From Candidatus Levyibacteriota bacterium (GTDB lineage Bacteria; Patescibacteriota; Microgenomatia; Levybacterales; UBA12049): a DNA stretch of 64,000 nt. Below are positions 18,210-56,478 of the stretch, one piece after another (position 1 is the first letter of the stretch; each line of letters starts with the position of its first letter). The notes beneath the pieces are model-generated. The model did not search any database. It was not told the origin of the DNA and saw only the letters and a program-made list of their open reading frames with translations. The stretch lies in assembly GCA_052034235.1 (NCBI GenBank), contig JBPOIT010000002.1, positions 5,939-69,938 on the forward strand, written 5' to 3'. Position numbers and translations under genes: made by a program.

Positions 18210-19712
18210 ATGTCTAAACGATTTAAGCATTTTCTTAAGAATTACATACTCCTTTTTGTTATTTTCCTGACAGGCGCTGCAGTTCTCATTATTGAGGTCA
18301 CTGCGACGAGAATTCTTTCTGTCTATTTTGGTAATACAATTTTTACTGTTTCAAGTGTGCTTAGTGTTATTTTACTTGCCTTGAGTTTGGGATATTATCT
18401 CGGAGGCAGACTCGCTGACAAGCGTCCCTCAGAACTGTTATTTTTTCAGCTTATTGCAGTAAGCGGTTTAAGTGTCTTTTTGCTCCAATTTCTGAATAGT
18501 ATGTTTATTCCAATGCTTAGCAAAACACTGGACATGCAGTATGGGCCAATTTTTGTCTCACTCATTCTTTTTTTACTTCCGGGCTTTCTTTTAGGTCTGT
18601 TATCTCCACTCGTTGCCAAACTCCAAACTATTCGCATGGGTGCTGATGAAGTTGGAAGGATTACTGGTGATGTGTTTTTCTGGTCAACACTTGGAAGTAT
18701 TATTGGAAGTTTGGCAACAGGTTTTGTGCTTATTCCACTTTTTGGAGTGACTGAAATTATCCTTGGGACTGGCGTGTTACTTCTGATCATCGGTTGTCTC
18801 GGTATGATACAAATCCAAAAGAATCGATTAGCAACAATCAAACTTCTCACATTGTTTATCACCATCTCTTTTATACAAATCTGTTTGAGTTTTTTGGCCG
18901 ATAAACAACTGAGAGAGAATGTGGTTTATGCAAACGACGGTTTATATGACAATATTGTCATTTTTGATGGGATGCTGGAGAATCGTCCGACACGATTTTT
19001 GCAGCAATCAACTGATGCCTCAAGTGCTATGTACAAAGACTCAACAGAGTTGGTATATGACTATACAAAGTATTACCGATTATATTCGCTGACAAAGCCT
19101 GATATCACTCGAGCAATGGTAATCGGCGGAGGAGCATATTCAATTCCGAAAGACCTGTTACTGACTGATAATGATGTTATCGTTGATGTTGCAGAAATTG
19201 AACCTGAAATGTATGAGCTTGCAAAGGATTATTTTAGCGTTCCGAATGATAACAGGCTCGTAAATTACGTAGGGGATGGGAGAAGATTTTTGCAGGAAAC
19301 TGATCAGTCTTATGATCTAATTTTTGGTGATGCATATCATACATCAATCCCGTCTCATTTAACGACACAGGAGTTCCTTCGTCTAACCAAATCAAAACTC
19401 ACCAAAGACGGCGTATTTATTATGAATGCTATCGGAAGGCTACGGGCAGAAAAACCTTCATATTTGCTATCTCAGATAAAAACATTTATATCAGTTTATC
19501 CAAATACAATGATTTTTGCAGTTCATGACAAAGCATATACGGGGCCACAGAATATCATTCTTGCTGGTTTTAATACAGAAAAACCAATTAATCCAGGCAC
19601 GTTTGCTGATAAAATAATTAAAATAGGGGAGTTCGATTTGGAATCACATGCACTCTTCACAGACAACTATGCACCAGTGGAATACTTTAACGTCGTCAAT
19701 AAGCTCCGTTAA
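18210..19712 (+). CDS. Membrane-anchored spermidine/spermine synthase-like aminopropyltransferase (N-terminal multi-TM fusion)
   Basis: About 6 N-terminal TM helices, then a class I MTase/spermidine synthase core (MVIGGGAYS, GDGRRFL, YDLIFGDAY). Confidence 0.65.
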   Translation: MSKRFKHFLKNYILLFVIFLTGAAVLIIEVTATRILSVYFGNTIFTVSSVLSVILLALSLGYYLGGRLADKRPSELLFFQLIAVSGLSVFLLQFLNSMFIPMLSKTLDMQYGPIFVSLILFLLPGFLLGLLSPLVAKLQTIRMGADEVGRITGDVFFWSTLGSIIGSLATGFVLIPLFGVTEIILGTGVLLLIIGCLGMIQIQKNRLATIKLLTLFITISFIQICLSFLADKQLRENVVYANDGLYDNIVIFDGMLENRPTRFLQQSTDASSAMYKDSTELVYDYTKYYRLYSLTKPDITRAMVIGGGAYSIPKDLLLTDNDVIVDVAEIEPEMYELAKDYFSVPNDNRLVNYVGDGRRFLQETDQSYDLIFGDAYHTSIPSHLTTQEFLRLTKSKLTKDGVFIMNAIGRLRAEKPSYLLSQIKTFISVYPNTMIFAVHDKAYTGPQNIILAGFNTEKPINPGTFADKIIKIGEFDLESHALFTDNYAPVEYFNVVNKLR

Positions 19713-19794: not shown

Positions 19795-20451
19795 TTAACT
19801 AGGTATGGGGAACTTCTCCTTAGTTATATTAATGATCTTCTTAGTCAAACGATTAGCTGCTTGGCGTCGCGTTAAAGCGGATAACATCTCCTCTGCAGGA
19901 ACAATTGAAGGTTCATGAGTTTTGTGCTTATCTCCGGTGGTAAGAAAAAATGCTGTCCTATCTGTTGACGGATAAATCCGAAAGGAGAGGTAATCATCAT
20001 GTGCATTATTAAACTCTTCAGGTAATACTCCTGCTAATATAGGGAGTCCGCTGGCTCTCCTGTATGATTTATCAATTCCGGTATGAGGGTGCATTTGCGG
20101 GATATAGATACCACCAATTAAACCAGGCCCGTCATTGAAATCACCACGAGCTGCTGCTATAACAAGCTTGTGAGGATCTGTCGCTTGTTTATCACGATCT
20201 TTTTGCAGGCTTAGAAACACAATATTTCCTTCTATTATTGTGAATGTTTTCTGTATACCTACGACACCTGTGTCTGATGGACGTATATAGACTTGTATTT
20301 CAGCGCCTACAAGACGCTCTCTTTGTTTTTTGGTAAGTGTTGTTTGGCGGGAATCAATTAATTCTGCGTAAATAGCTTCGATTCCACCTTCAAAACCATG
20401 ACCAGAAGCTCTTTGAGGTTTTCTAAGTCCAAGCTCTGCGAGTACATTCAT
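19795..20451 (-). CDS. Hypothetical protein (218 aa), no recognised domain
   Basis: ORF with reasonable codon usage; no motif recognisable by eye. Ends 77 nt before tRNA-Asn. Confidence 0.35.
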   Translation of the reverse strand: MNVLAELGLRKPQRASGHGFEGGIEAIYAELIDSRQTTLTKKQRERLVGAEIQVYIRPSDTGVVGIQKTFTIIEGNIVFLSLQKDRDKQATDPHKLVIAAARGDFNDGPGLIGGIYIPQMHPHTGIDKSYRRASGLPILAGVLPEEFNNAHDDYLSFRIYPSTDRTAFFLTTGDKHKTHEPSIVPAEEMLSALTRRQAANRLTKKIINITKEKFPIPS

Positions 20452-20528: not shown

Positions 20529-20600
20529 TCCGCGATAGCTCAGCGGTAGAGCAGGAAGCTGTTAACTTCAAGGTCCTAGGTTCGAATCCTAGTCGCGGAG
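20529..20600 (+). tRNA. tRNA-Asn (anticodon GTT)
   Basis: Cloverleaf folded by hand: acceptor TCCGCGA/TCGCGGA, D-arm GCTC/GAGC, anticodon loop CT-GTT-AA, T-arm CTAGG-TTCGAAT-CCTAG, discriminator G. Confidence 0.85.
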
Positions 20601-20607
20601 CATGATA

Positions 20608-20631
20608 AAGAGCCGAAAGGCTCTTTTTTTG
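20608..20631 (+). terminator. Rho-independent terminator after tRNA-Asn (AAGAGCC-GAAA-GGCTCTT + T7)
   Basis: 7-bp GC-rich stem with GAAA tetraloop, followed by TTTTTTT. Confidence 0.8.
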
Positions 20632-21747: not shown

Positions 21748-22095
21748 TTGTATAGTTCGTTTATGCAAAAACTTATTAAGAATTATCCTCTTATATCCTC
21801 AGCTGTTTTAGGTTTTATTTTCCTTATTCCGTTTATTGTTCTTGAGATTGTAAATAGGTGGAAATTTAGCGAAGGGTTTCCATTTGCTGTTTTTACTTTT
21901 ACATGGGCTCTTCAAACTGTTTTTATACTGATACTGTTGAAATTTATAAAGAAAAGACAGTCAGGAAAAACTTTTAAAGAAAATCCATTTATCATTATTC
22001 TACAAATAGTAAGCTTGGTACTTATAGCTTATATTTGGGGAGGCTGGATTATCGACCAATGGCCCTGTTTGATGGGTGTGCCAAATTGTGACTAA
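21748..22095 (+). CDS. Hypothetical small membrane protein (3 TM)
   Basis: Hydrophobic segments only; no motif. Confidence 0.35.
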   Translation: MYSSFMQKLIKNYPLISSAVLGFIFLIPFIVLEIVNRWKFSEGFPFAVFTFTWALQTVFILILLKFIKKRQSGKTFKENPFIIILQIVSLVLIAYIWGGWIIDQWPCLMGVPNCD

Positions 22096-22126
22096 ACTTA
22101 TATCTTCTGATACAATACCCTAACTT

Positions 22127-22525
22127 ATGAAGCATATTGCACCTTCTCAAAAGATATATACTGCCAAATCTACTATTCCTCATGCTGATAGGGGAGTTTT
22201 TGCTGAGGTAGCAATTAAGGAAGGGGAGATTATTGAAGTGTGTCCGTTTATTGAAATTCATGATCCTGAAAGTTCGAATTTGGAGAATAACTTTCTCATT
22301 AACTATTATTATTTTTTTGGGGAGACAAAAGAGAGAGTACTTGTCGCTTTGGGTTTTGGGTCGCTCTACAATCATGATTATTCGCCAAACGCAGCTTATA
22401 CAATACATCCAGATGAACAGACAATTGTCTTTAGCGCAATAAAAAACATACGGAAAAATGAAGAAATAAAAGTGAACTACAATCACGGAAATGATGACTG
22501 CGCCCCTTTATGGTTTGAAGAATAA
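22127..22525 (+). CDS. SET-domain protein (putative protein-lysine methyltransferase)
   Basis: NHDYSPNAAY (the NHSCxPN pseudoknot motif equivalent) and EEIKVNY (ELxxxY); 132 aa, minimal SET core. Confidence 0.6.
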   Translation: MKHIAPSQKIYTAKSTIPHADRGVFAEVAIKEGEIIEVCPFIEIHDPESSNLENNFLINYYYFFGETKERVLVALGFGSLYNHDYSPNAAYTIHPDEQTIVFSAIKNIRKNEEIKVNYNHGNDDCAPLWFEE

Positions 22526-22566: not shown

Positions 22567-22836
22567 ATGAGTACTATTGAAGAGATTGATAAACGTCTTC
22601 AAAAAATTGAAGAGAGAAATAAAAGTGTTGAATTAAACAAAGCGTGGGAAACAAGTTACACTCGTCGATTACTTATCTCAATTTTTACGTATCTCGCAAT
22701 TGCGCTTTATCTGCAATTTATTGTTGGTATCGATCCATGGATTAATGCAATTGTACCAACAATTGGTTTTTTACTTTCTACATTATCACTTCCATTTTTA
22801 AAAAAAGTCTGGGAGAAGTTTTTCTATAAGAAATAA
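22567..22836 (+). CDS. Hypothetical small membrane protein (2 TM)
   Basis: ORF with two hydrophobic helices. Confidence 0.3.
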   Translation: MSTIEEIDKRLQKIEERNKSVELNKAWETSYTRRLLISIFTYLAIALYLQFIVGIDPWINAIVPTIGFLLSTLSLPFLKKVWEKFFYKK

Positions 22837-23262: not shown

Positions 23263-25533
23263 ATGACTTCTCGTTCATATCAAGTAAATGGAATGCACTG
23301 TGCGAGCTGTAGTTCCATTATCTCCAAAAAACTTAACAAACTTCCAGGTGTGGATTCATGCTATGTTAATTTCGCCACAGAACAGGCACGTATTTCGTAC
23401 GATTCTGAAAAGGTAACAACAGAACAGATGAATCATGAAATTAATAAATTAGGATATAACCTTATCTCCCATGAAGAAAATCATAATGAATCGATGGATC
23501 ATTCAGAGCATTTAGGACTTACGCAATCAAAAGAAGACAAGCTCAAAGAACTTGCAAACCTTGAATCAAAAGTTGCATTTGTTTTACCAATTACTCTTAT
23601 GGTGTTTTCCCTTATGTTGTGGGATATCTTGTCTCAAGTTGGAGGGTTTCCTTCATTGCCAATTGAGATGGAGCTTTTTACAGCGATTTTATTTGTGTTA
23701 GCATCAATCGTTTTGTTTTGGATTGGGAGACCATATATAGATGCAGTTGTAAGATTTGCAAAATATCGTGTTTCAAATATGGACTCTTTAGTAGGAATAG
23801 GAACGCTGACTGCGTATCTTTATAGCAGTATCATATTTTTATTCCCACAGATAAAGACAGCATTATCACTTCCTGACTATACCTATTTTGATATCACTAT
23901 TGTTGTTATTGGTTTTATAACATTAGGCAAGTATCTTGAAACCCGTTCAAAACTGCAAACTGGTGAAGCGATTGAAAAACTCATCAACCTGCAAGCAAAA
24001 ACGGCTTTGGTTTTAAGAGATAACAAAGAAGTTCAAATTGCACTTTCAGAAGTACGTGTCGGAGATATTATGATCGTCAAGCCAGGAATGAAACTTCCTG
24101 TTGATGGAATTGTTTTCAGCGGGAGTTCTTCTATTGATGAATCAATGATAAGTGGAGAACCATTGCCTGTTGAGAAAAAGAAAGGTGATAGTGTTATCGG
24201 CGCGACTATCAATAAGCAAGGGAGTTTTCAGTATCGTGCAACCAAAGTTGGTTCCCAAACAATGCTTGCTCAAATTATCAAACTTGTTGAAAATGCGCAG
24301 GGGTCAAAAGCGCAGATTCAAAACCTTGCAGATAAAGTCTCGGCTGTCTTTATCCCAAGCGTTCTTATTATTGCTGTTGTCACGTTTTTTCTTTGGTTAA
24401 CAATTGGTGCATATTTTCTGGGGATGACAGCTGCATTCTCGTATGGGCTCTTGGCATTTGTTGGTATTCTTGTTATTGCCTGTCCTTGTGCATTAGGTCT
24501 TGCAACACCAACTGCAATAATCGTCGGTGTAGGAAAAGGTGCTAGTCATGGGATATTAATAAAAGACGCAGAGAGTCTGGAAAATTTACATACAATAGAT
24601 ACCATCGTTTTTGATAAGACAGGAACTATTACAAATGGAACACCCACGGTCACAAACATTGTCTCATTTGAAAAATCTTATTCAGAAAAAGAGGTACTGC
24701 AGTATGCCGGCAGTCTTGAAAACCTTTCAGAACATCCATTAGCAAATGCAATTGTTCAGAGTTTCAAAAAAACAGGAGGTTCTATACTTAAAGTAAATTC
24801 ATTTAAAGAACATGAAGGGATTGGTGTTGAAGGGATAGTTGAGCAAAAAAAGATGATTGTTAGAAAGCCCTCAAAAGACGAACAACAACTTGCAGCTATC
24901 AGTACAATGCAGTCTCAAGGAAACACCGTTGTTGTTTTGGAAATAGAGAAAAAAATTGTTGGAATACTTGCTCTTAATGACACTGTTAAACCGAACGCAA
25001 AACAAGCTATTAATCGATTACATGATATGGGTATAAAAACAGTAATGCTGTCAGGTGACAATAAACAGGCAGCAGCCTTTATTGCCGAAAAAGTGGGTAT
25101 TGATGTCGTTAAAGCAGAAGTGCTTCCTCAAGAAAAAGCGCACATAATCAAGCAGTTACAAAAAGATGGAAAAAATGTCGCAATGGTAGGGGATGGTATC
25201 AACGATGCACCCGCGTTAAGTGAAGCAAAAGTAGGTTTTGCGATGGCAACAGGTTCAGATATCGCTATTGATTCGGCCAGTATCACTATTCTTGGTGGAT
25301 CAATAGAAAAAGTTCCGCAAGCAGTTATGCTTTCAAGAGCAACAATTCGTACAATAAAACAAAACTTGTTCTGGGCTTTCATATATAATATTATTGGTAT
25401 TCCATTAGCTGCAGGCGTGTTGTATCCGCTGTTTGGATTGTTTCTCAATCCGGTTTTTGCGGGATTTGCGATGGCGTTATCATCTGTGTCTGTTGTTGGT
25501 AATTCGTTATTATTAAGGAAAGGGAAAATTTAA
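23263..25533 (+). CDS. copA: Copper-translocating P1B-type ATPase
   Basis: N-terminal HMA GMHCASC, CPC ion-translocation motif (ACPCALG), [19 protein letters not shown] motif (SEHPL). Confidence 0.92.
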
Positions 25534-25534
25534 T

Positions 25535-26548
25535 ATGGATCTACTTGTTATTTTCATTACTGGTTTAACTGTTGGCGGGCTTACATGTTTAGCTGTCCAA
25601 GGTGGCCTCCTTGCATCAGTTATTGCTGCGAGAGAAGAGGAGTCAACAAGAAACAAAAAAGCGCATGCCTTTTACGCGACTGGAATCTTTTTGAGTTCTA
25701 AATTAGTAGCGTATACACTTTTGGGTTTTTTTCTGGGTGCCTTTGGAGGAGCAATAAATATCAGTGATACAGTCCAAAGTATCATGCAGCTATTAGCCGG
25801 TGTTTATATGATTATTGTTGCGCTCAACTTACTCAATATTCATCCCATATTCAGATATGCAATTATTCAGCCGCCAAGATTCTTAACTCGAATGGTCCGA
25901 AATCAGTCGAGATCAAAAGACATATTTTCACCTGCGCTTTTGGGAGCCATGACAATATTTATTCCTTGCGGCACAACGCTTGCAATGGAAACTTTAGCAA
26001 TCAGTAGCGCCAATGCTTTTACAGGAGCTGCGATTATGGGCATATTTACACTGGGAACAATACCATTATTTTTCGGAATTGGAGTCGTGACATCAGTACT
26101 AGGAGATATGTATAAAACGAGATTTCTTAAACTTGCAGCAATAGCACTAATTTATTTGGGGCTGACATCTATTAACGGTGCGTTTATTGTGCTTGGTTTT
26201 CCACTTAATTCTCAAATATTTGCACAAAACACCGAACAGCCTGTGCAAAAAAATGAAAAGAAACTGTACAGTGAAGCGCCTAAACAGCAGAACATAACGA
26301 TACGCATTACTTCAGAGGGGTATTCTCCGAATTATATAAAAGTGAAGAAAGGCCAACCTGTCACATTGACGCTCAACAGTAAAGATGCATTCAGTTGCGC
26401 TCTCGCGTTTCGTATTCCTGAATATGGTATCAGCAAAAATTTACATCCAACAGAAACACAGACTGTTACTTTTACTCCGCAAAAGACAGGGAAAATTCCA
26501 TTTGCTTGCTCGATGGGGATGTACACGGGGGTGATTGAGGTAATATGA
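25535..26548 (+). CDS. Membrane protein (about 6-7 TM with a TM Cys, GGLTCLAVQGG) carrying a C-terminal cupredoxin-like beta domain; probable copper-handling accessory protein
   Basis: Translationally coupled to copA (its start lies 1 nt after the copA stop) and overlaps copZ by 4 nt. The C-terminal ~90 aa (ITIRITSEGYSPNYIKVKKGQPVTLTLNS...FACSMGMYTGVIEV) look like a cupredoxin fold without an obvious His ligand. Confidence 0.45.
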   Translation: MDLLVIFITGLTVGGLTCLAVQGGLLASVIAAREEESTRNKKAHAFYATGIFLSSKLVAYTLLGFFLGAFGGAINISDTVQSIMQLLAGVYMIIVALNLLNIHPIFRYAIIQPPRFLTRMVRNQSRSKDIFSPALLGAMTIFIPCGTTLAMETLAISSANAFTGAAIMGIFTLGTIPLFFGIGVVTSVLGDMYKTRFLKLAAIALIYLGLTSINGAFIVLGFPLNSQIFAQNTEQPVQKNEKKLYSEAPKQQNITIRITSEGYSPNYIKVKKGQPVTLTLNSKDAFSCALAFRIPEYGISKNLHPTETQTVTFTPQKTGKIPFACSMGMYTGVIEVI

Positions 26549-26769
26549 GCATCATAAAAAAGAAATTTACTATCGAAGGGATGCATTGCACTTCGTGTGC
26601 AATGAATATTGATTTTGACCTAGAAGATCTTCCTGGAATAAAAATAGCAAAAACAAGCTATGCGAAACAACAAACACAAGTTACGTATGATGAAGAAAAG
26701 GTAACTGCAAAAAATATTTGTGAAACTATCGGAAAAACCGGATATAAAGCATCTCTCGCCACAAAATAG
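26545..26769 (+). CDS. copZ: Copper chaperone (HMA domain)
   Basis: GMHCTSCAMNI metal-binding motif; 74 aa. Confidence 0.8.
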   Translation: MSIIKKKFTIEGMHCTSCAMNIDFDLEDLPGIKIAKTSYAKQQTQVTYDEEKVTAKNICETIGKTGYKASLATK

Positions 26770-33540: not shown

Positions 33541-35199
33541 TTACTGTGTGGTTTTCGTTTCTACGGTTTTAATTTCTACAGTATTGAGCGGTTGTACTTG
33601 AAATGTTTGGACTCCTGAAGGTTGGACCTCAAATGTTTGTGGAGCTGTTGATTCGACAGTTGTAGTAACTGTCTCGACAGGAGCTTCAACTGCTGTAGCA
33701 GGCACTGCAAGGTCAATAGAAGCAGCCGGTTCCGCACGGCCTCCCATAAAGCTTGTTGCTGCAAATGGTGTCGGGAAACCATTATTATTTTTTGGTGCTA
33801 AGAAGAGAAGCAAAAGGAAAAGCACGAGAAGGAACAGTATTGCCCATATCACCGTTGACGCAAAAGTCACAAGTGCCCAGCCCATACCTTTTTTGATACC
33901 CATACCAATTGCCGGAGCGAGGAAGAAAAAGAGATAGACAAAAGCGGAAACTGCAAAAACAAACAGAACAAGAATACTTTCACTATTTGAATATCCATAC
34001 CCCATGCTTGGATTTAGCAGTTGGGATACTGCATAAATGGCAAAGGTATAGAGTGAGACAAAGAGCATTGAAACAAAGCTAATAGTCATCGCAATCAGAA
34101 AAGTCTTGTTCCGATTCTTGAGTACTGCAACTGAAGCTTCGTCTTTCGCAGCTTTTTTGCCTGAAACTTTGTTTATGACAACCTTTGCGACAATAATGGT
34201 GATAAGAACAATGAGAAGAAAAATTCCTACACCTGTTGCTATTTCTTTCCCATATAGTATGGCTTGAGATTTTGCATAAGAACCAGATACTTCATAAGTT
34301 TCCTTGGGTGCGAGATCAGAAGCTTGCTTGATAATCTTGCCGGTGCCGATTTGGTTGTAAAACTGATCAAACTGAGCATTTCTTATGCCAGAGCTCATAC
34401 TGTCTGTTGCCGGAAGTGCGGCCATAGTCATTGTTCCGCCATAGTTTACGTCGCCGAGTGCTCCACGCAAAATGTAATCTGCATCAGTTGAGATCCCAAC
34501 TTGCAGTGAGTTTATCTTATCTTCTGTTTTGAGCGTTACAAATTTATAGTCATACGCGCCAAAAACATCCTTTTGAGTAATTGTGTTTGTACGGTAATAG
34601 ACAAAGTATGCACCGTTTTTATTTGGCTCAATTGGAGTAGGAAGCTTAAGGAGAATCGTATTATTTTGTGTTTCATTTTGAATGCGCTGGTAGGTTGTGC
34701 TTCCATAAAGATATTGGTAATCAGGCTGCTGATATTCTGCGCATGTTTCCTTCATAACCGCAGGCGTCAGTGTTTTTGTATCAGAAATCAATGGTTGTGG
34801 GAGATACCGAATGCATTGAGGTTCCTGAATAACCTGATAAGCAATCATCTCGGCAGGGGAAATATTCTCAGGCAATATTAAGCTGACAGTTTCAAGCGGA
34901 GTAGTGCCGGTATTTGAAACAATTGCTTTAAACGTCACAACAGCTTCACCATTACCACGAAGTGTAAGGGTATAAAATTGATTTTGTCCAAAAAGATTCG
35001 CAGGTGTATCCTGAGGTGGAACGGGGAGGATGCTAAGACTTCCTGAAGTCGTTTGAGCACTCGCACTAACAGGCACAAAAAGGATAAGAGCTAAAATAAG
35101 AAGAAAGAAACGCTTCACTCTCTTTAGTAAACCATGTTCATAGTTTGCTGTCAATAAATAAGTAAAAAGTGTGCGTCTTGATTTGTTATAATTTAACAT
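33541..35199 (-). CDS. Large secreted/membrane-anchored hypothetical protein (signal peptide, beta-rich ectodomain, several C-terminal TM helices, repetitive tail)
   Basis: Signal peptide LILALILFVPVSASAQT; a C-terminal hydrophobic cluster; tail ...QTFEVQPSGVQTFQVQPLNTVEIKTVETKTTQ. Start uncertain (35199 ATG, or 35226 per the track). Confidence 0.4.
   Translation of the reverse strand: MLNYNKSRRTLFTYLLTANYEHGLLKRVKRFFLLILALILFVPVSASAQTTSGSLSILPVPPQDTPANLFGQNQFYTLTLRGNGEAVVTFKAIVSNTGTTPLETVSLILPENISPAEMIAYQVIQEPQCIRYLPQPLISDTKTLTPAVMKETCAEYQQPDYQYLYGSTTYQRIQNETQNNTILLKLPTPIEPNKNGAYFVYYRTNTITQKDVFGAYDYKFVTLKTEDKINSLQVGISTDADYILRGALGDVNYGGTMTMAALPATDSMSSGIRNAQFDQFYNQIGTGKIIKQASDLAPKETYEVSGSYAKSQAILYGKEIATGVGIFLLIVLITIIVAKVVINKVSGKKAAKDEASVAVLKNRNKTFLIAMTISFVSMLFVSLYTFAIYAVSQLLNPSMGYGYSNSESILVLFVFAVSAFVYLFFFLAPAIGMGIKKGMGWALVTFASTVIWAILFLLVLFLLLLFLAPKNNNGFPTPFAATSFMGGRAEPAASIDLAVPATAVEAPVETVTTTVESTAPQTFEVQPSGVQTFQVQPLNTVEIKTVETKTTQ
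35184..35192 (+). promoter_or_regulatory. Extended -10 promoter TGtTATAAT for the MFS gene (ATG at 35200, leaderless-like)
   Basis: TG at 35184-35185, TATAAT at 35187-35192, ATG 8 nt downstream. Confidence 0.45.
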
Positions 35200-36441
35200 A
35201 TGATCCGCAAGCCTCAGAGCATACAATCAATTTACCTGTCACTGGTTTTAGGTAATACACTCGCGGCTTCATTTATCTGGGGGATTAATACTATTTTTCT
35301 GCTTGATGCTGGGCTAAGTAATTTTGAGGCATTTCTTGCTAACGGACTGTTTTCGCTCGGCATGGTTCTTTTTGAGGTACCAACAGGCATCGTCGCTGAC
35401 ACGTACGGAAGGAGGACTTCCTATATGCTTGGAACAATAACACTTTCAGTTTCAACAGCACTGTATCTTTTAATGTGGCAGATTCATGGTCCATTCTGGG
35501 GATGGGCGGTTTCTTCAATAATGCTTGGACTTGGCTTTACCTTTTTCTCAGGTGCTCTTGAAGCCTGGCTTGTTGATGCGCTGAAAGCAACAAATTTTAA
35601 AGGCAATCTCGAAAGTGTTTTTTCCAAAGGACAAATTGTGGGAGGTATCGCAATGCTCGTTGGGTCTGTCGCTGGGGGAGTGATTGCTCAATTTACAAAC
35701 CTTGGGGTGCCATACATACTCAGAGCTGTGGTTCTTCTTATTAACTTTGCCACTGCCTACTTTCTGATGAAAGATTTAGGGTTTATACCCTCAAAACCTA
35801 AACAGCCATTTTCTGAAATGAAAAAAATATTTGATAAGTCAGTTGAGCATGGTTTCCATAACCCACCAGTTCGTTGGATTATGCTCGCTGCACCGTTTAC
35901 AACAGGTGTAAGTTTCTATGTCTTTTATGCACTTCAGCCATATTTACTCCAATTATATGGAGATGAAAGAGCCTACAGTGTTGCAGGTGTTATTGCTGCA
36001 CTGACGGCTTGTGCGCAAATTGTGGGAGGCATGACTGCTGTTCATTTGCGCAAACGCTTCAAAAAGCGAACAGATATACTTTTACAAGGAATATTTGTAA
36101 CAGGCCTTCTTCTTCTTTTAGTTTCATTGGTAACTAATTTTTGGGTTGCGCTCATTCTTATTTTTGCGTGGGCACTGCTTTCGGCTGCCATCATGCCTGT
36201 ACGCCAAGCATATCTTAATGACATTATCCCTTCTGAACAGCGAGCGACAGTTTTGTCATTTGATTCATTGATGGGTTCAAGTGGTGGTATTGTGCTCCAG
36301 CCTGCGCTCGGAAAGGCTGCTGACATGTGGGGATATGGTACTTCCTATGCTCTGTCAGCGTGTTTCCAATTTGCAGCATTGCCGTTTATCTATTTTGCAA
36401 AAAAAGAAAAGGTAAAAGCTGATGTTATCGAAGAAAAATAA
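35200..36441 (+). CDS. MFS transporter (12 TM)
   Basis: 12 hydrophobic helices; GIVADTYGRRTSYMLG matches the MFS motif A. Confidence 0.75.
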   Translation: MIRKPQSIQSIYLSLVLGNTLAASFIWGINTIFLLDAGLSNFEAFLANGLFSLGMVLFEVPTGIVADTYGRRTSYMLGTITLSVSTALYLLMWQIHGPFWGWAVSSIMLGLGFTFFSGALEAWLVDALKATNFKGNLESVFSKGQIVGGIAMLVGSVAGGVIAQFTNLGVPYILRAVVLLINFATAYFLMKDLGFIPSKPKQPFSEMKKIFDKSVEHGFHNPPVRWIMLAAPFTTGVSFYVFYALQPYLLQLYGDERAYSVAGVIAALTACAQIVGGMTAVHLRKRFKKRTDILLQGIFVTGLLLLLVSLVTNFWVALILIFAWALLSAAIMPVRQAYLNDIIPSEQRATVLSFDSLMGSSGGIVLQPALGKAADMWGYGTSYALSACFQFAALPFIYFAKKEKVKADVIEEK

Positions 36442-39405: not shown

Positions 39406-40707
39406 TCATTGTTGTGCTGCTTCGTGTGTGAGCGTTACGAGTACCAGGTCAGGTACATAGAGGAATTCTTCTTTTTTGTAACCGTTTCGCAAAAGCGCAT
39501 CGTGGACGTTTTTGGAGAGGACAACTGGATAATAATCATCAATTTTATGTGAGAGGGTTTGTTGTTCAGTTTGATCCTCAAAAATATCGTAGCCTATGGT
39601 TAAGATCCCGAGTTTTGTTTTTGAAGGTTTGTAACCGAGTTCTTTAAGGCGTGTATAGAATCTTTCCTTATACTCAGTGATACCTTCTTTTGTTGCTCTA
39701 AAGACGATTCTACGGCCTTTAGCGATAGTTAAAATCTTTTTGAGCACAATATCAGATGGATCCAGCAGTGTCACTCCACTATATCGCAGAGCAATTGATC
39801 CCATGGTGATAACATCTTCACTCTTTGGGATAATTGCTTTTTCATCTTCTGAGACAACATAACTTTTATGGTATTTATCTCCAATAATAATAATGCGGTT
39901 TTGATTCCAGTTCAGTTCTTTTTCGATGACTCTGATATTTTGGCAGAGAATGTCGAGTTTATGAGGAGAAAGATCATATGCTTTTGCACCTGGTAAAAAG
40001 ATTTGGTCATCTTTAACAGGGAAGAACACATATTCACCCGCGTGTTCACCATCTGCTCTTATAAGCGTTTGTTTGAGGTCGTCATACAGTCCATCAGCTG
40101 CATAGGTATTCCAGAAAATGGTAACGAATGGTTTTGTTTCTGAGATTGTAACTGTTTCATCAGGTTTATGGTTGAGGACAAACTGTGTGCCGATAAAGTC
40201 GCCTTTGCCCACAAAAAGCAGAGAATGACCGGGTTTCATGATAAGGCGGAGCATGCCGCTTGTGACTTGTTCTTGAAGCATTTTCTTTGCAAGATAGACT
40301 TTATCAAGCCAGGTTCTTCTATCAATTGCATCAATAAGTTTTTTGATACCGAAAATGCCAAAAGAGTAGAGGACGATGTTTGGAATGTGGTAGAGGATAT
40401 TGGCTTTTCGAACGGGCTCTCCAATCATGTCCCATAAATAATCAATTCCAACAAGCATCGGAGGTGGGAAATTCGTCCAGGAAGGTAATTGATTGACAAA
40501 TGCTTTAAACTCGATTGGAAACGCAGTAAAGATGAACCCAAACAGTAATGACAGCGGCACAGTTATACGTTTCAGTACTTTTCGAAGTTTGGTATCCTGA
40601 TTTAATTTCTCAAATTGCAAAAGATAGGTGATATCTTCTGGCTTTATTGATGTACCAGATGTGACATTCTTTGCAATGGCTATGAGTCTGCGCTTTTGAT
40701 ACTGCAT
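39406..40707 (-). CDS. Hypothetical 433-aa protein with an N-terminal TM segment; no recognisable catalytic motif
   Basis: ORF divergent from the second histidine kinase; no Walker or other motifs seen by eye. Confidence 0.4.
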   Translation of the reverse strand: MQYQKRRLIAIAKNVTSGTSIKPEDITYLLQFEKLNQDTKLRKVLKRITVPLSLLFGFIFTAFPIEFKAFVNQLPSWTNFPPPMLVGIDYLWDMIGEPVRKANILYHIPNIVLYSFGIFGIKKLIDAIDRRTWLDKVYLAKKMLQEQVTSGMLRLIMKPGHSLLFVGKGDFIGTQFVLNHKPDETVTISETKPFVTIFWNTYAADGLYDDLKQTLIRADGEHAGEYVFFPVKDDQIFLPGAKAYDLSPHKLDILCQNIRVIEKELNWNQNRIIIIGDKYHKSYVVSEDEKAIIPKSEDVITMGSIALRYSGVTLLDPSDIVLKKILTIAKGRRIVFRATKEGITEYKERFYTRLKELGYKPSKTKLGILTIGYDIFEDQTEQQTLSHKIDDYYPVVLSKNVHDALLRNGYKKEEFLYVPDLVLVTLTHEAAQQ

Positions 40708-44816: not shown

Positions 44817-46223
44817 TTAGTACGAAGCATAATTGAATCCAGAGGTATTACTAATTCTGACACTTGCATAGTTATTGCCCGTGCGAATCGATACCTTACC
44901 GTTGTGTTCCTCATGATTCTGAGAATGATAGTTTTTATATTTCTCGTTGAAATAGTTGCAGTCATCCTTTTTATCATAATCATGGTTTACCTTTTTTACG
45001 TACGTGACATATTTTTTATCATGGTTGTACTTATCGTCATGATTGTAAGATGTTACTTTGTAATCTTTGTTGTAATCATCTTTATGACTTTTGTAGTACT
45101 CATATGCCTCCCAGCAGCCATAATTACCTTCATATCCTTCATGTTTGAATAGGAATGTTAAGTAATAGTGACAGTTTTGTAGGTATTCATATTTGCCATA
45201 ATCATTCTTTTCATATTTCACGTATTTGTAGTCGTACTCTTTGTAATCCTTCTTGTTTGATTCATGGCCTTTTTTATCCCAGTCATCGTGTTTGAAGGAG
45301 TACGTATGATCATCTTTTTTCTCAGAATTGTATTCATGATGATTGTCTTCATCATGTTTATTCTTATCATCATGATCATCGTCTTTTTTACTGTCTACAT
45401 ACGTATGATCCTCGGAAGCTTTATGCTCATCGACCTTTTTATCGTCCTCATGTTTACCATAGTTTTTATTTTCATACTCATGGTTATCCTTTTTGACTTC
45501 GACATACTTTTGGTCGTCATGGTTTTTCCAGGATTTCTCGTCATCATTTTCATGATTGTCTTTGTAGGACTCGTCTTTGTTGTATGAATCTTTGTTCCAA
45601 TCATTATCTTTGTTTTCTTCAGACTTGAAAACTTCGTGCTTTTCCTCATACTTCTTATCGTCCTTGTCAGACCAGTTTTTTTTGTCAGTATCCCAGTCTT
45701 TCTCATCATGCTTATATGATGTGTTCTCATCTGCATGGTTGTATCCAGTATTTGCTTGTACGTCTACATTATTCTCAATCTTGGTGTCATTCTCCTGCGT
45801 GACTTCTTTCTTATCGTTATTTGAGAAATGTATCTCGTTATCTGAATGTGCACCGTTTTCGCTTTCTTTTATTTTCCAATCACTCTTCTCATGATCGTTA
45901 TTCACATACGCAGCGTTTACTCCGGCCGTATTCTCGATAGAAACGTGAGAGCGAGCATCACCAGTGTGTATTGAAACATCTCCACCGGTATTATCATTGG
46001 CTGAATTATTGCCCGTATTGCTATGTGTTGAGACATTATTGGAAATGGATGTATCGTTAGATTGATGAACAGATGTATCATGTTGTTCACTCACATGAAC
46101 TTTGTTATCTGAACGTGAACCATTTCCTGCAATAGTGATTGAATCAGCTGAAGCCGGGAAAAATGCTGCTGATCCCAAGAATGCTGCTGAAGAAATAAAA
46201 TAAGCAAGTTTTGTTTTTGTCAT
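44817..46223 (-). CDS. Secreted low-complexity His/Asp/Lys/Tyr/Asn-rich protein (468 aa)
   Basis: Strong SD AAGGAGGTG; signal peptide MTKTKLAYFISSAAFLGSAAFFPASA; long KDD/HDD/YNHD/KYE-type repeats. Opposite-strand ORFs are codon-bias artefacts. Confidence 0.5.
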   Translation of the reverse strand: MTKTKLAYFISSAAFLGSAAFFPASADSITIAGNGSRSDNKVHVSEQHDTSVHQSNDTSISNNVSTHSNTGNNSANDNTGGDVSIHTGDARSHVSIENTAGVNAAYVNNDHEKSDWKIKESENGAHSDNEIHFSNNDKKEVTQENDTKIENNVDVQANTGYNHADENTSYKHDEKDWDTDKKNWSDKDDKKYEEKHEVFKSEENKDNDWNKDSYNKDESYKDNHENDDEKSWKNHDDQKYVEVKKDNHEYENKNYGKHEDDKKVDEHKASEDHTYVDSKKDDDHDDKNKHDEDNHHEYNSEKKDDHTYSFKHDDWDKKGHESNKKDYKEYDYKYVKYEKNDYGKYEYLQNCHYYLTFLFKHEGYEGNYGCWEAYEYYKSHKDDYNKDYKVTSYNHDDKYNHDKKYVTYVKKVNHDYDKKDDCNYFNEKYKNYHSQNHEEHNGKVSIRTGNNYASVRISNTSGFNYASY

Positions 46224-50124: not shown

Positions 50125-50153
50125 GAACCTCTCAGGTGAGAGGTTCTTTCTTT
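50125..50153 (+). terminator. Terminator/attenuator-like hairpin GAACCTCTC-AGGT-GAGAGGTTC + TTTCTTTGTT immediately before the trpE ATG
   Basis: Perfect 9-bp stem at 50125-50133 and 50138-50146, with a U-rich tail ending 4 nt before the ATG at 50157. Confidence 0.55.
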
Positions 50154-50156
50154 GTT

Positions 50157-51506
50157 ATGAAACAATTACAAAAAATTTGTATTACACAAAAACCAACATA
50201 CCGTAAATTGGCAGAAGATGTCGATTTCTTTGAACTGTTTGCAAAAGTAGAACGGGAGTTTGATACCTGTTTTCTGCTTGAATCATTAGGAGAAGAAGGG
50301 AAGTTTTCAAGATATTCAACAATTGGGTTTGCCCCTGAACATCTTATTTCAGCACAAAAAGAAACGTTATTTGTGGATGATGAAACGTTTGAAACAACAA
50401 ATCCATATAAAGCACTAAGAGAGATGATGCCTGAAGAAACGATTGCTCGTGAATACGCGGGAGGACTTGTCGGGTATGTAAGTTATGATGCTATTAACTA
50501 TTTTGAACCGACAATTAAAGCAAAAGTGCATGACGATTTTGATCAGTTTATGTTTGGCGCGTATACGGATGGCGTAGTTTTTGACAAATTAACCAATGAG
50601 TTATTTTATTTTTACTACACGGAGGATCGAAGCCAAATTTTAAAACAAATCATGAAAAAATCACTTCCTACTCAATCTGTGCAGGTTACATTTGCAAATG
50701 ACAGTCTTACGAAAGGGGAACATAAACAGATTGTTGAACAGGTTAAAGAACAAATTCGTGCAGGAAATATCTTTCAATGCGAGGTTGGATTTAAATCGAA
50801 GTACAAAGTAAAAGGAGACTTGTTGCAAATCTATAAAAAGCTGAGAAAAGAGAACCCCTCTCCGTTTATGTATTATCTGAAATTTGGCAAAAAGAAAATC
50901 ATTGGTGCGAGTCCTGAACTGCTCTTTTCGCTTCGAGATGGTGAAATGACCACCAAACCGCTTGCCGGAACAATTAAACGCGGCAAATCTGAGCAGGAAG
51001 ACCAACAGCTTGCAAGAATGTTGCTTAACGATCCTAAAGAAATTGCTGAGCACAGAATGCTTGTTGATTTACACCGCAATGATATCGGCAAAGTTGCGCA
51101 GTTTGGTACGGTGAAAGTGCGTGAACTGATGTCTGTTAAAAAGTTCAGTTATGTGCAGCATATTTCAAGCGAGATTGTCGGACTCATGAGTCAGAAAGAG
51201 GATATGTTCTCAGCGTTTGCTTCCAATTTTCCAGCAGGAACACTAACAGGTGCTCCCAAGATTGAAGCGATGAAAATTATTGATGCGAACGAAAAAGAGG
51301 CGCGCGGACCATATGGCGGGGCAGTCGGGCATTTCGGTTTTAATGGAGATTGTACTTTTGCCATAGCTATCAGATCACTTTTTGCCTCAGGTGAAAAGGC
51401 TTACACCCAAACATGCGGAGGGATTGTGTTTGATTCTGATCCTGACAAAGAGTATCAGGAGATTATCAATAAAAAGAAAGCGATGAAAGGAGTTTTGGAA
51501 GCATGA
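50157..51506 (+). CDS. trpE: Anthranilate synthase component I
   Basis: Chorismate-binding domain; GAVGHFGFNGDCTFAIAIRS and GGIVFDSDPDKEYQE C-terminal signature. The track start 50136 is a GTG inside the hairpin. Confidence 0.9.
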   Translation: MKQLQKICITQKPTYRKLAEDVDFFELFAKVEREFDTCFLLESLGEEGKFSRYSTIGFAPEHLISAQKETLFVDDETFETTNPYKALREMMPEETIAREYAGGLVGYVSYDAINYFEPTIKAKVHDDFDQFMFGAYTDGVVFDKLTNELFYFYYTEDRSQILKQIMKKSLPTQSVQVTFANDSLTKGEHKQIVEQVKEQIRAGNIFQCEVGFKSKYKVKGDLLQIYKKLRKENPSPFMYYLKFGKKKIIGASPELLFSLRDGEMTTKPLAGTIKRGKSEQEDQQLARMLLNDPKEIAEHRMLVDLHRNDIGKVAQFGTVKVRELMSVKKFSYVQHISSEIVGLMSQKEDMFSAFASNFPAGTLTGAPKIEAMKIIDANEKEARGPYGGAVGHFGFNGDCTFAIAIRSLFASGEKAYTQTCGGIVFDSDPDKEYQEIINKKKAMKGVLEA

Positions 51507-52108
51507 AGGTCTTACTTATCGATAATTATGATTCATTTACCTTTAATCTCTACCAGGTCGTAGGTGAAATTCTGATGAAAACACAAAGTAAGTTTACAAT
51601 CGATGTGTTTCGAAATGATGAGATGACACTTTCAGAAATAGCTCAGAATAAATATGACAGAATTATTATTTCTCCAGGCCCGGGAGATCCAGCTGATAAG
51701 CACTATTTTGGTGTTTGCGCAGAGGTCATTACGCAGCTTGGTAAAAGGACTCCTGTCTTTGGGGTGTGCCTCGGGATGCAGGGAATTGCGCATTACTTCG
51801 GTGGAAAAGTGGTTCGGGCTAACGTTCCTATGCACGGTAAGACAAGTGAAATAATGCATGACGAAAAAGGGGTTTTTGCTGGATTGCCGCAAGGTCTTGA
51901 AGTGATGCGTTACCATTCACTCATTGCTGATAAAAAATCACTGCCAAAAGAACTCGTTATAACTGCAACCGCAGGTGAAAACGGTGACATTATGGGAATT
52001 AGGCATAGACATTTCCCAATCGAAGGCATACAATTCCATCCGGAATCATTTGCAACAGAAGCGGGAAAACGAATGCTTGAAAACTTTATACAGCAAACTT
52101 ATGAATAA
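51503..52108 (+). CDS. trpG: Anthranilate synthase component II (class I glutamine amidotransferase)
   Basis: VLLIDNYDSFTFNL, catalytic GVCLGMQ, HPE triad; ATGA overlap with trpE. Confidence 0.85.
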   Translation: MKVLLIDNYDSFTFNLYQVVGEILMKTQSKFTIDVFRNDEMTLSEIAQNKYDRIIISPGPGDPADKHYFGVCAEVITQLGKRTPVFGVCLGMQGIAHYFGGKVVRANVPMHGKTSEIMHDEKGVFAGLPQGLEVMRYHSLIADKKSLPKELVITATAGENGDIMGIRHRHFPIEGIQFHPESFATEAGKRMLENFIQQTYE

Positions 52109-53114
52109 GATATTAAACAAACTACTTGAAAAGCAAGATTTGTCAGCTCGTGAGATACGTCTCTTTCTTGACGGTATGGTAACGGGGGAAGTCCCGCCAG
52201 CACAGATCGCTGCATTTCTGGCGGGATTGCGGACAAAAGGGGAAACTGTTGAGGAACTTGTGGCACTGATTGAAGGTATGCGAACGTATATGGTTGTCGT
52301 GCCTGGTGGCGAAACGGCAATTGATACATGTGGCACTGGAGGAGATGGTTCTGGAACATTTAATATCTCAACGACAGTTGCTTTTGTTGTTGCTGGTGCA
52401 GGCGTTACGGTTATGAAACACGGCAACAGAGCAGCCAGTAGTAAATGCGGCAGTGCAGACGTTTTGGAAGCACTTGGAGTACATATCAATATAACTTCGA
52501 TGCAAGCTAAAAAAGTGGCTGAAAAAACGGGAATGGTATTTCTCTTTGCACCCATGTATCATCCAGCGATGAAAAATATAGCACCTGTTCGAAAAGAACT
52601 TGGAGTGAGAACAGTTTTTAATTATCTCGGACCGTTTCTCAATCCCGCAGGGGTAAAACGACAATTGATTGGTGTGCCTTCACCTGTTCTTGCCAAAAAA
52701 CTTGCAACGGTTGCGGTAAAACTTGGATATGAACATCTGTTGATTGTTTCAAATAAAGACGGACTTGATGAGCTTGGCCTCTCTTCAGGATCACACATCT
52801 ATGAAGTGAAAGGGAGAACTGTCAAGTCAAAAATGTTTGATCCTTTGAAATTAGGTTTTAAGACTGCGTCAGTAAAAGCACTGAGTGGAGGAACTGCAGC
52901 GCAAAACGCACAACTTATAAAAGAAGTTCTGAGTGGTAAAGAAGGTCCTCGTCGTGATATTGTGGTAATAAATGCAGCACATGCGCTGTATGTTTCAGGT
53001 AAAGTAAAAACGGTCAAAGAAGGCATAAAACTTGCAGAAATCTCTCTTGATTCAGGATCAGCAAAAGAAGTTTTAGAAAATGTTATAAAGGAGACAAACA
53101 TATATGCACAATAA
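52101..53114 (+). CDS. trpD: Anthranilate phosphoribosyltransferase
   Basis: GTGGDGSGTFNIST glycine-rich motif; start taken at the internal ATG 52101 (overlaps the trpG stop) rather than the track start 51975. Confidence 0.85.
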   Translation: MNKILNKLLEKQDLSAREIRLFLDGMVTGEVPPAQIAAFLAGLRTKGETVEELVALIEGMRTYMVVVPGGETAIDTCGTGGDGSGTFNISTTVAFVVAGAGVTVMKHGNRAASSKCGSADVLEALGVHINITSMQAKKVAEKTGMVFLFAPMYHPAMKNIAPVRKELGVRTVFNYLGPFLNPAGVKRQLIGVPSPVLAKKLATVAVKLGYEHLLIVSNKDGLDELGLSSGSHIYEVKGRTVKSKMFDPLKLGFKTASVKALSGGTAAQNAQLIKEVLSGKEGPRRDIVVINAAHALYVSGKVKTVKEGIKLAEISLDSGSAKEVLENVIKETNIYAQ

Positions 53115-53838
53115 ACTCAAACAAATTATTGATCAAACAAAACGAGATGTCGCTTCCCGAAAAACAAAAAACACGGTTGTCAGTTTGTTTCGAAACTATG
53201 ACGGTGTGGCGATTATCGCTGAGATAAAACTTGCGTCTCCTACAAATCCTCATTTGGGTTCAGTAAATGATGTAACGCCAAACGCTCGTGACTACCAAAA
53301 GGGTGGAGCAGCGATGATTTCTCTCGTTACAGAGAAACATTTCTTTAAAGGTGATCCGAATTTTATTCGTCAAATTAAAAAAGCTGGAGTCAGCTTGCCT
53401 ATTTTGCAAAAAGATTTTGTCATTGATGCATTGCAGCTTGTTGAGTCAAAAGAAGCCGGTGCCGATGCAGTTTTACTGATTGCTAAAATGTTGAGAAGAA
53501 AGCAGCTTAAGCAGTTTGTTTCACTCGCCAAAGCGCTTGGTGTTGAACCTATTGTTGAAATAAACGATGAAGAAGATCTGGACAATGCAATTGCTGCAAA
53601 TCCTTCTCTTATCGCCGTGAATGCGAGAGATTTGGAAACCTTTACTGTTGATATTGATCGTGCAAGCAGTCTCATGGAAAGAATCCCAGATGAATTTGTG
53701 AAGCTTGGCTTTTCAGGAATACAAACTCGTAGTGACGTTGAAAAGTACAAAAAAGCTGGTGCAAAAGGGGTTTTGGTTGGGACGAGCCTGATGCAAGCTC
53801 CTGATAAAATACAACTTTTGGAGGAATTACATGTATGA
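53104..53838 (+). CDS. trpC: Indole-3-glycerol phosphate synthase
   Basis: IIAEIKLASP motif; TIM-barrel length. Confidence 0.8.
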   Translation: MHNKLKQIIDQTKRDVASRKTKNTVVSLFRNYDGVAIIAEIKLASPTNPHLGSVNDVTPNARDYQKGGAAMISLVTEKHFFKGDPNFIRQIKKAGVSLPILQKDFVIDALQLVESKEAGADAVLLIAKMLRRKQLKQFVSLAKALGVEPIVEINDEEDLDNAIAANPSLIAVNARDLETFTVDIDRASSLMERIPDEFVKLGFSGIQTRSDVEKYKKAGAKGVLVGTSLMQAPDKIQLLEELHV

Positions 53839-54452
53839 CCGTAGCAGTCAAAATCTGCGGGATTAGGTCAGTTGAAAGCGCATTGGCTGCAATAGATGCA
53901 GGTGCTGACTTCATTGGGCTTAATTTTGTTCCAACCTCAAAGCGAAAGATCAATGAAGGTACAGCACGAGAGATTGTTGAGGCAGTTGAAGGGCAAGCAA
54001 TGACGGTTGGTGTTTTTCAAAATGCTGACAGTGTGTATGTAAATACACTCGCAAGAAGTTTGGATTTAGATTATGTGCAATTGCATGGAACTGAGGATGC
54101 CGCGTATTGCAGCCAAATGCAAACTAAAGTCATAAAAGCACTTTCGCTAAAGCAAAATGTTGATGTCCATGCATTACTGCGTGAGATGAAAGAGCTAGAT
54201 GTGTCATTGTTTTTGCTAGATCGAGCAGTGCAGGGAAGCGGTTCTGCCATACCTGTTCAAGTTGCGGAGCGCCTGGCGCAGGAATTTGAAGTCTTTCTTG
54301 CTGGAGGATTACTTCCAGATACTGTTGCTGGCGTGGTAAAAAAAATTAGACCATATGCGGTTGATGTTGCGGGAGGAATTGAAACTGATGGGGAGGAAGA
54401 TATTATCAAGATAAAACAATTTATCATGAATGCAAAAGGAGTAATTTTATGA
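53835..54452 (+). CDS. trpF: Phosphoribosylanthranilate isomerase
   Basis: VKICGI N-terminus; 205 aa; ATGA overlap with trpC. Confidence 0.75.
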
Positions 54453-55666: not shown

Positions 55667-56447
55667 ATTTGAAGCTAAACTGGCGGAATTAAAACAAAAA
55701 AAGAAATTGGGTTTAATGACCCACGTTGTTGTGGGATTTCCCTCAATTGAGGAAACAGTTTCAATTGTCAAAACCATGGCTGAAAACGGTGCTGATTTTA
55801 TCGAACTGCAGATTCCGTTTTCTGATCCACTTGCCGATGGCCCGACAATTATGAAGGCATGCGAAGCGTCACTCGCAAATGGTACCAAAGTAAAAGATGC
55901 GTTCAAGGTGATGAAACAATTATCGTTTCAGTCTGAGACACCGCTTCTTTTTATGGCGTATTACAACACTATTTTTAGATATGGGGTTGAAAAGTTTTGT
56001 TTTGATGCGCAAATGGCAGGTGCTGCAGGTCTTATTGTGCCTGACATGCCGCTTGATGAGGAAGCGCATGAACATTTCTATGAATACTGCGAAAAGTACA
56101 ACTTATATCATATTCAGGTTATTTCACCAGCTTCAACAGATAATCGGTTGCAAAGAAATGCTCAAGCTGCAAGCGGTTTTGTTTATGTGACTTCACGGCA
56201 GGGAACAACAGGTGCAAAAGACACACTTGATCCAGCACTTGTCACGTATCTTCAAAAACTAAGAACGTATATAAAATTACCACTTGCCGTTGGATTTGGT
56301 ATTTCAAAACGTGAACATATAGACATGCTGCGGGGACATGCTGATATTGCCGTTGTCGGGAGTGCGATTATAGATATTATTAAATCAACTGCAAAAGGGA
56401 AGCGCGAGGAAGCAGTTAAAACATATATTTCCCAGTTAGTACGTTGA
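55659..56447 (+). CDS. trpA: Tryptophan synthase alpha chain
   Basis: TIM barrel with GFGIS and LGSAII-like motifs; 8-nt overlap with trpB. Confidence 0.85.
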
Positions 56448-56478
56448 ATAAGTTGAGCTTAGGAAGTACAATACAGAT

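Follow-up and report, generated by a model that had tools for sequence, protein, structure and literature searches.

A minimal SET-domain protein of the vSET type, predicted to be a lysine methyltransferase, encoded by an uncultured Candidatus Levyibacteriota bacterium

The closest described systems are three small SET enzymes. vSET (A612L) of Paramecium bursaria chlorella virus 1 (PDB 1n3j, 2g46, and 3kma) is a viral enzyme that methylates K27 of eukaryotic histone H3; its roughly 120-130 aa are a SET core standing alone, with neither a pre-SET nor a post-SET region. vSET functions as a homodimer and does so without a post-SET region, and its Y105 is thought to align methyl transfer (PMC3914023). 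Set7 of S. pombe (PDB 5h6z), which methylates H3K37, has 169 aa and is extended at its C-terminus, and PFL0690c of Plasmodium falciparum (4rz0), too, belongs to the minimal SET proteins, its PDB entry bearing the title 'putative histone methyltransferase'. SET lysine methyltransferases are found in prokaryotes as well, namely, BaSET of B. anthracis, cpnSET/NUE of Chlamydia, and Go1-SET of Methanosarcina mazei, and the likeness of our protein to these is drawn from their descriptions (PMC3980110). The characterised small bacterial SET proteins are mostly effectors of pathogens, and to these are added the two endogenous cases in which Hc1 and MC1-alpha are the targets, cpnSET methylating Hc1 and Go1-SET methylating MC1-alpha (PMC3980110). 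The pathogen SET proteins are secreted effectors, whereas the SET protein described here has no secretion signal and comes from an uncultured and apparently metabolically competent bacterium.

The SET gene lies in a 64,000-nucleotide stretch of contig JBPOIT010000002.1, which was analysed as a whole and is referred to as the window, and the features discussed are collected in Table 1. This is a genuine gene on which purifying selection acts. When it was compared with a 96%-identical copy there were 10 synonymous and 6 non-synonymous differences and the dN/dS was 0.14, and when it was compared with an 85%-identical copy the dS was 0.96 and the dN/dS was 0.08. A 145-aa ORF on the opposite strand (22049..22486, minus strand) was taken for a shadow ORF and discarded in view of the Pfam match on the plus strand and the dN/dS. 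The start codon is supported because the N-terminal APSQKIY of the protein is kept in its relatives. In a hydropathy scan over all 132 aa no signal peptide, hydrophobic N-terminus, or TM segment was detected, the maximum Kyte-Doolittle score over 19 residues being 1.18. The initial annotation had described a minimal SET protein at 22127-22525 that carries the hallmarks NHDYSPNAAY and EEIKVNY and is without pre-SET or post-SET zinc clusters, and this description holds: an ORF of exactly 132 aa runs there from ATG to stop and has a full-length Pfam SET match, the two strings are residues 82-91 and 112-118, respectively, and zinc clusters of either kind are impossible because the protein has just two cysteines (C39 and C125), nor is there room for extra domains.

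Table 1. Features of the SET gene, its surroundings, and the rest of the window
Feature	Position	Strand	Remarks
SET gene, complete ORF	22127..22525	+	132 aa plus stop, ATG to TAA; 15.2 kDa, pI 5.06
SET domain proper	22190..22483	+	Residues 22-119; whole Pfam profile, AF2 model, Foldseek
Motif I, R22-G23-V24-F25, putative GxG-type SAM-binding turn	22190..22201	+	Aligns with GYGVF (vSET) and GRGLF (MLL1)
Aromatic cluster Y60-Y61-Y62	22304..22312	+	Aligns with Tyr of DYLF (vSET) and CYMF (MLL1)
Motif III, N82-H83-D-Y-S-P87-N88 (NHxxxPN)	22370..22390	+	Aligns with vSET, Set7, SETD7
Y91	22397..22399	+	At least 90% conserved; aligns with Tyr of NCIY in SETD7
Motif IV, E112-E-I-K-V-N-Y118, with predicted catalytic Tyr Y118	22460..22480	+	From sequence alignment
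C-terminal flank GNDDCAPLWFEE, residues 121-132, with W129	22487..22522	+	W129 at least 90% conserved; pLDDT <50
Promoter-like site GTGACT-17-TACAAT, TG upstream	22088..22116	+	Consensus match only
tRNA-Asn (GTT)	20529-20601	+	Sole Rfam match
Terminator-like hairpin	20607-20626	+	Directly 3' of tRNA-Asn
89-aa predicted membrane ORF	22567-22836	+	Lowest GC in window, 0.30
HMA-CopA P-type ATPase	23263-25533	+	Copper/heavy-metal cluster directly downstream
DsbD_2 transmembrane domain fused to cupredoxin	25535-26548	+	
74-aa HMA protein	~26545-26769	+	
-10-like hexamers, examples	ORFs at 13451, 15272, 22127, 22567, 22855, 23263, 35200, 56479		
500-aa protein, N-terminal MFS-like membrane region and spermidine/spermine-synthase domain	18210-19712	+	
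Large ORFs (218-561 aa)	33541-35226, 39406-40707, 44817-46223, 19795-20451	-	No Pfam/NCBIfam family; 33541-35226 has a sub-threshold match to oligosaccharide repeat-unit polymerase
trp operon trpE, G, D, C, F, B, A, then trpS	50136-57459	+	
GAPDH, 445 aa	58471-59808	+	Pfam domains end at residue 327; ~115-aa C-terminal extension unexplained

When the protein was searched against Pfam, the SET profile PF00856 matched residues 22-119 over profile positions 2-105 of 105 with an E-value of 1.6e-14 and 54.6 bits, the gathering cutoff being 22.4 bits, which is far beyond chance. The only other Pfam match was a sub-threshold one to the PR-domain (E 0.12), and in NCBIfam there was no named family for the 132-aa protein. 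The SAM-binding Asn and Tyr, on which the initial annotation had made its assignment depend together with the PF00856 match, are present in the alignments as N82-H83 and Y118. Motif III, the putative pseudoknot and SAM motif, has its counterparts in NHSKDPN of vSET, NHDRHPN of Set7, and NHSFTPN of SETD7, and the Cys of the canonical NHSCxPN is Tyr85 in our protein, a position at which vSET has Lys. Y118 aligns with Y105 of vSET and with the Tyr of TVAY in SETD7, which is presumably the catalytic Y335, and the Tyr of NCIY with which Y91 is aligned is taken by us to be Y305, the Phe/Tyr product-specificity position of SET7/9; the alignment with SETD7 is weak but consistent, and vSET has His at the position of Y91. 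The aromatic cluster Y60-Y61-Y62 may form the wall of the lysine channel. The C-terminal flank has the pattern GNDDxxPLWF, of which the LWF motif is common to S. pombe Set7, and it is nearer to the flank of Set7 than to that of vSET; it is probably a flexible flap in place of the post-SET region.

These residues are strongly conserved. In an alignment of 21 relatives of the protein (A1), the invariant residues were R22, G23, F25, I36, E37, C39, P40, Y60, G76, G78, S79, Y81, N82, A104, I108, E113, I114, and Y118, and the residues that were at least 90% conserved were Y61, H83, P87, N88, Y91, and W129. Judged by the profile, motifs I and III, and the predicted catalytic Tyr, the protein belongs to the SET-domain superfamily.

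Three different searches led to the same solved relatives. With the single sequence as the query, the best matches in the PDB were PFL0690c (4rz0, 6.5e-10), vSET (1n3j, 9.8e-9), and Set7 (5h6z, 1.3e-8), followed by SETD7 at about 5e-3. With the family profile made from the 21 relatives in A1, the matches were Set7 (2.6e-24), vSET (1.1e-20), and PFL0690c (1.3e-16), and beyond these MLL1 and others came at 1e-9 or weaker. The AlphaFold2 model of the protein has a pLDDT of 78 and a pTM of 0.73 and is disordered only at residues 1-4 and 121-132. When this model was searched with Foldseek, 364 PDB chains were found at E<=1e-3 and all of the 50 best were SET-domain methyltransferases, the top three being 4rz0, vSET 3kma, and Set7 5h6z with TM-scores of 0.76-0.85 for the predicted model. 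This structure prediction, which the initial annotation had named as a check, suggests a SET fold. As vSET, Set7, and PFL0690c top the sequence, profile, and fold searches alike, sequence and model together point to a minimal stand-alone SET enzyme of the vSET / Set7 / PFL0690c type.

The likeness differs in kind among the three. Like vSET, our protein is a stand-alone SET core without a pre-SET or a post-SET region, and the two have in common the motifs G-x-G-V-F, ALGFGxxxNHxxxPN, and EEIxxxY; vSET 3kma superposes on the AF2 model with a TM-score of 0.85 and an rmsd of 2.2 Å at 30% identity. Unlike vSET, which is viral, has a eukaryotic H3K27 target, and is a homodimer, the SET gene is on a bacterial chromosome and the dimer is proposed by analogy. 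Set7, the best match of the family profile (Foldseek TM-score 0.79), shares RGVFA, LGxGSxxNHDxxPN, EExxISY, and the C-terminal LWF(E) with our protein, whereas it is a eukaryotic histone methyltransferase, it is longer at its C-terminus, and the identity is 25-27%. PFL0690c, the top match of the single-sequence search and of Foldseek, is 38% identical over 118 aligned columns, whereas it is eukaryotic and its NH motif is separated from the catalytic Tyr by a long insertion.

The family to which the protein belongs is large. In an exhaustive phmmer search against 1.84 billion representatives at 50% identity, relatives were found in 3083 clusters at E<=1e-3, in 763 at E<=1e-10, and in 9 at E<=1e-30. 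They are mostly single-domain proteins of 110-170 aa, and only 59% of the single-domain relatives are acidic. According to a review, 83 out of 390 bacterial genomes had SET genes in 2007, the number had passed 500 by 2014, and free-living species were among the carriers (PMC3980110). The statement in the initial annotation that bacterial SET proteins are rare could not be upheld in view of these numbers and of the 3083 related clusters. In species-representative genomes, relatives were found in a Spirochaetota MAG (50% identity), in Woesebacteria and Saccharibacteria (38%), in Chitinophagales/Chitinophaga (36%), and in a Micavibrionaceae MAG of the Alphaproteobacteria (34%). On plasmids of Priestia megaterium, P. 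aryabhattai, Bacillus thuringiensis, and Cytobacillus, relatives annotated as 'SET domain-containing protein' are 36-46% identical over 83-94% of the query. Viral relatives, which are 32-42% identical, were found in a 735-kb uncultured phage (LR756501.1, 692222-692533) and in 46 IMG/VR contigs (L029-L074), among them giant-virus MAGs as well as phage contigs of 200-470 kb; in BFVD, relatives were found among the proteins of Caudovirales, Megaviridae, and chloroviruses. Despite the phage relatives, no family in PHROGs matched the SET protein. This is a large and already recognised family in many bacteria, plasmids, phages, and giant viruses, and the SET protein is a fairly ordinary member of it.

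Some relatives carry more than the one domain. About 16 of the best 150 cluster representatives, judged by stretch count and length, appear to be tandem SET-SET proteins, and when five of these sequences were inspected both halves were intact in four (P0033, P0034, P0036, and P0037) and in the fifth (P0032) the N-terminal half was degenerate and without the NH motif and the catalytic Tyr. Degenerate halves such as this one raise the question whether our protein has no catalytic activity and uses its SET fold solely for binding a partner, and we regard this as scarcely credible, as the catalytic and SAM-binding motifs are all intact both in the protein and in its relatives. Among the closest relatives examined, which besides P0032-P0037 were P0045, P0093, P0113, P0143, P0152, and P0156, there are also fusions other than tandem ones. 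The partners are a LigD 3'-phosphoesterase with an ATP-dependent ligase, with or without GNAT, RNase H, and, in P0113, P0143, and P0156, ATP-grasp (D-Ala-D-Ala-ligase-like) and class I methyltransferase domains. The LigD, RNase H, and GNAT fusions hint at nucleic-acid-associated contexts, and the ATP-grasp and class I methyltransferase fusions could equally be compatible with peptide or small-molecule chemistry; the fusion partners are heterogeneous and are at best hints that point in more than one direction. From the fusions in P0113, P0143, and P0156 it could be argued that the substrate is not a protein and is instead a ribosomally or ATP-grasp-made peptide, a cofactor, or a metabolite. This is very unlikely in our view, as no ATP-grasp or peptide-modification gene was found among the window neighbours scanned and the lysine-channel tyrosines together with the catalytic Tyr match those of protein-lysine methyltransferases. 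The molecule names of the PDB matches, by sequence as well as by Foldseek, are all histone or lysine methyltransferases, and to our knowledge all solved relatives act on protein lysines.

When the surroundings of the gene were examined, a same-strand run was found that consists of tRNA-Asn, DUF1428, a VOC/glyoxalase-fold protein, a membrane ORF of 110-115 aa, and SET, and 3' of SET on the same strand come the 89-aa membrane ORF, DUF1801, a CopA-type P-type ATPase, the DsbD_2-cupredoxin fusion, and the HMA protein. This gene order is kept in the 94-100% identical contigs (L007-L014). The window and the 96% relatives have the 89-aa ORF, whereas the 85% relative (L024) lacks it, and there DUF1801 comes 20 nt after SET (1008-1029). 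No neighbours are shared with the 48%-identity relatives (L026-L028), and in an all-against-all BLASTP of the flanking ORFs of six genomes from other phyla (L001-L006) the SET gene was the sole match. Since the neighbours are conserved only at 85% identity or above, nothing about a partner or substrate can be read from the gene context. The GC content of the SET gene is about 0.36 and that of its surroundings (20.7-24 kb, 3' of the tRNA-Asn) is 0.33-0.37, compared to about 0.395-0.397 for the window with a standard deviation of 0.031. Horizontal acquisition was considered on the basis of GC and set aside as not decisive, the deviation being about one standard deviation and coming largely from the small membrane ORFs. 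The 20.7-24 kb stretch of below-average GC may be a flexible region.

A different origin for the gene has to be weighed at this point, namely, that it was derived from a mobile element or a virus, was acquired horizontally, and has a role in virus-host or plasmid-host conflict, for example by modifying a DNA-binding protein of the host or of a phage, and not in housekeeping. The distribution is patchy, with relatives of 34-50% identity over Spirochaetota, Bacteroidota, Patescibacteria, and Alphaproteobacteria and others on Bacillus/Priestia plasmids, in the 735-kb phage, in the 46 IMG/VR contigs, and among the BFVD Caudovirales proteins; the gene is about 1.5 kb downstream of the tRNA-Asn in DNA of below-average GC (0.34-0.36 versus 0.395); and the adjacent 89-aa ORF comes and goes among close relatives. 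However, none of the flanking genes identified is an integrase, phage, or plasmid gene, neither the SET protein nor its small neighbours had a PHROG or PADLOC match, synteny and purifying selection hold at the locus throughout the 85-100% relatives, and the small membrane ORFs account for most of the GC deviation of about one standard deviation. A mobile origin with a conflict role is therefore considered unlikely.

The transcription of the gene appears to be its own. Between the -10 hexamer of the promoter-like site and the ATG there are 10 nt, and no Shine-Dalgarno sequence precedes this ATG, which suggests that the SET gene has its own promoter and a leaderless or near-leaderless mRNA. The same arrangement is common in the window. 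In 24 of the 66 window ORFs a -10-like hexamer ends 4-13 nt upstream of the start codon, compared to 11.1 ± 3.2 at random positions; these hexamers are of the form TAnnnT, often TACAAT or TATAAT, and their distance peaks at 6-8 nt before the start. A Shine-Dalgarno-like core was found in just 9 of the 66. From sequence patterns this suggests that leaderless mRNAs are widespread in the window, which would be unusual for a bacterium of 39.5% GC.

What the rest of the window encodes bears on the lifestyle of the organism. Besides the trp operon, there are genes for the alpha and beta subunits of an F-type ATP synthase, DnaG, a 360-aa RpoD, two P-type ATPases and two MFS transporters, two PAS histidine kinases, a pyridine nucleotide-disulphide oxidoreductase, and the sugar-modifying enzymes DegT, an epimerase, and GT4. 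Many window ORFs are without a Pfam or NCBIfam family, which fits an uncultured and poorly sampled lineage, and when ten uncharacterised ORFs were searched in NCBIfam no family specific to a lineage was found. The complete trp operon speaks against the genome being strongly reduced and auxotrophic; the window does not resemble a piece of a reduced genome and the metabolism is apparently self-sufficient. The initial annotation had supposed a reduced genome and possibly a host- or partner-associated organism, and this picture does not fit a window with trpEGDCFBA, trpS, the F-ATPase alpha and beta subunits, PAS kinases, transporters, and sugar-modifying enzymes.

This observation leads to the question whether the protein is nevertheless a secreted effector, that is, a nucleomodulin that methylates the histones of a eukaryotic host or partner like BaSET, NUE, RomA/LegAS4, and BtSET. 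The characterised bacterial SET proteins are mostly host-directed effectors (PMC10117894, PMC3980110), and the closest solved relatives of our protein methylate histones. The protein has no signal peptide or TM segment, which counts only weakly against its membership in the group of bacterial nucleomodulin effectors (NUE, RomA/LegAS4, BtSET, and BaSET), as export is possible even where such a signal is lacking: no signal can be recognised in BaSET, and yet it is secreted (PMC3980110). The initial annotation had named host histones and bacterial nucleoid or ribosomal proteins as the usual candidate substrates, and neither the sequence nor the surroundings of the gene single out a host target. 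There are, however, no secretion-system genes among the window ORFs scanned, which are about half of them; tryptophan biosynthesis, ATP synthase subunits, and environmental sensor kinases are not the profile of an obligate associate; and close family members occur in free-living soil bacteria and on Priestia plasmids. An effector function is therefore quite unlikely.

The reading that we prefer, with somewhat better than even confidence, is that the SET protein is a cytoplasmic, probably homodimeric, SAM-dependent lysine methyltransferase that acts on a probably basic endogenous protein. The full-length SET profile, the four intact SET motifs, the fold predicted as SET, the absence of zinc-cluster regions, and the purifying selection are its foundation. 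From sequence and model the enzyme would be a SAM-dependent protein-lysine N-methyltransferase of the minimal SET type. By analogy to vSET it would work as a homodimer, and we infer the dimer because vSET works as one and because tandem SET-SET proteins are frequent among the top relatives. In other SET enzymes the C-flanking segments fold over SAM and the substrate lysine, and here the disordered aromatic C-terminal flank (PLWF) may close over them in the same manner and thereby replace the post-SET region. With Tyr91 at the position of the Phe/Tyr switch of SET7/9, the product would, again by analogy, be a low methylation state, mono- or dimethyl-lysine. Being acidic and without a signal, the protein would stay in the cytoplasm, where it would methylate a single lysine or a few of them on a basic protein of the cell itself, for example a DNA-associated or ribosomal one, and not a host histone. 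The gene appears to have a promoter of its own that yields a near-leaderless mRNA, and it is not part of any conserved operon. A basic endogenous substrate is probable because the enzyme is acidic and signal-less and comes from an apparently self-sufficient bacterium, and because the targets in the precedents, Hc1 and MC1-alpha, are DNA-binding. In addition, SET relatives occur in non-pathogens, for example, in Chitinophaga and Priestia megaterium.

A bolder proposal, which we hold only tentatively and with rather low confidence, is that the widespread clade of SET proteins of about 130 aa in free-living bacteria marks an endogenous nucleoid protein or a DNA-repair factor; a DNA-repair target such as Ku is hinted at by the LigD-SET and RNase H-SET fusions. 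The substrate of the small bacterial SET proteins is a question for the whole family and this locus does not make the answer easier; the SET gene alone contradicts nothing that is known and raises no new question. What it adds to the family is a clean, intact, and selected example from an uncultured lineage. The leads come from the family survey, in which the frequent tandem SET-SET proteins support a dimeric working unit and the LigD, RNase H, GNAT, and ATP-grasp fusions were found. If the proposal is true, methyl-lysine on a DNA-associated protein would be a genuine bacterial 'chromatin mark' system and not the work of a host-directed effector.
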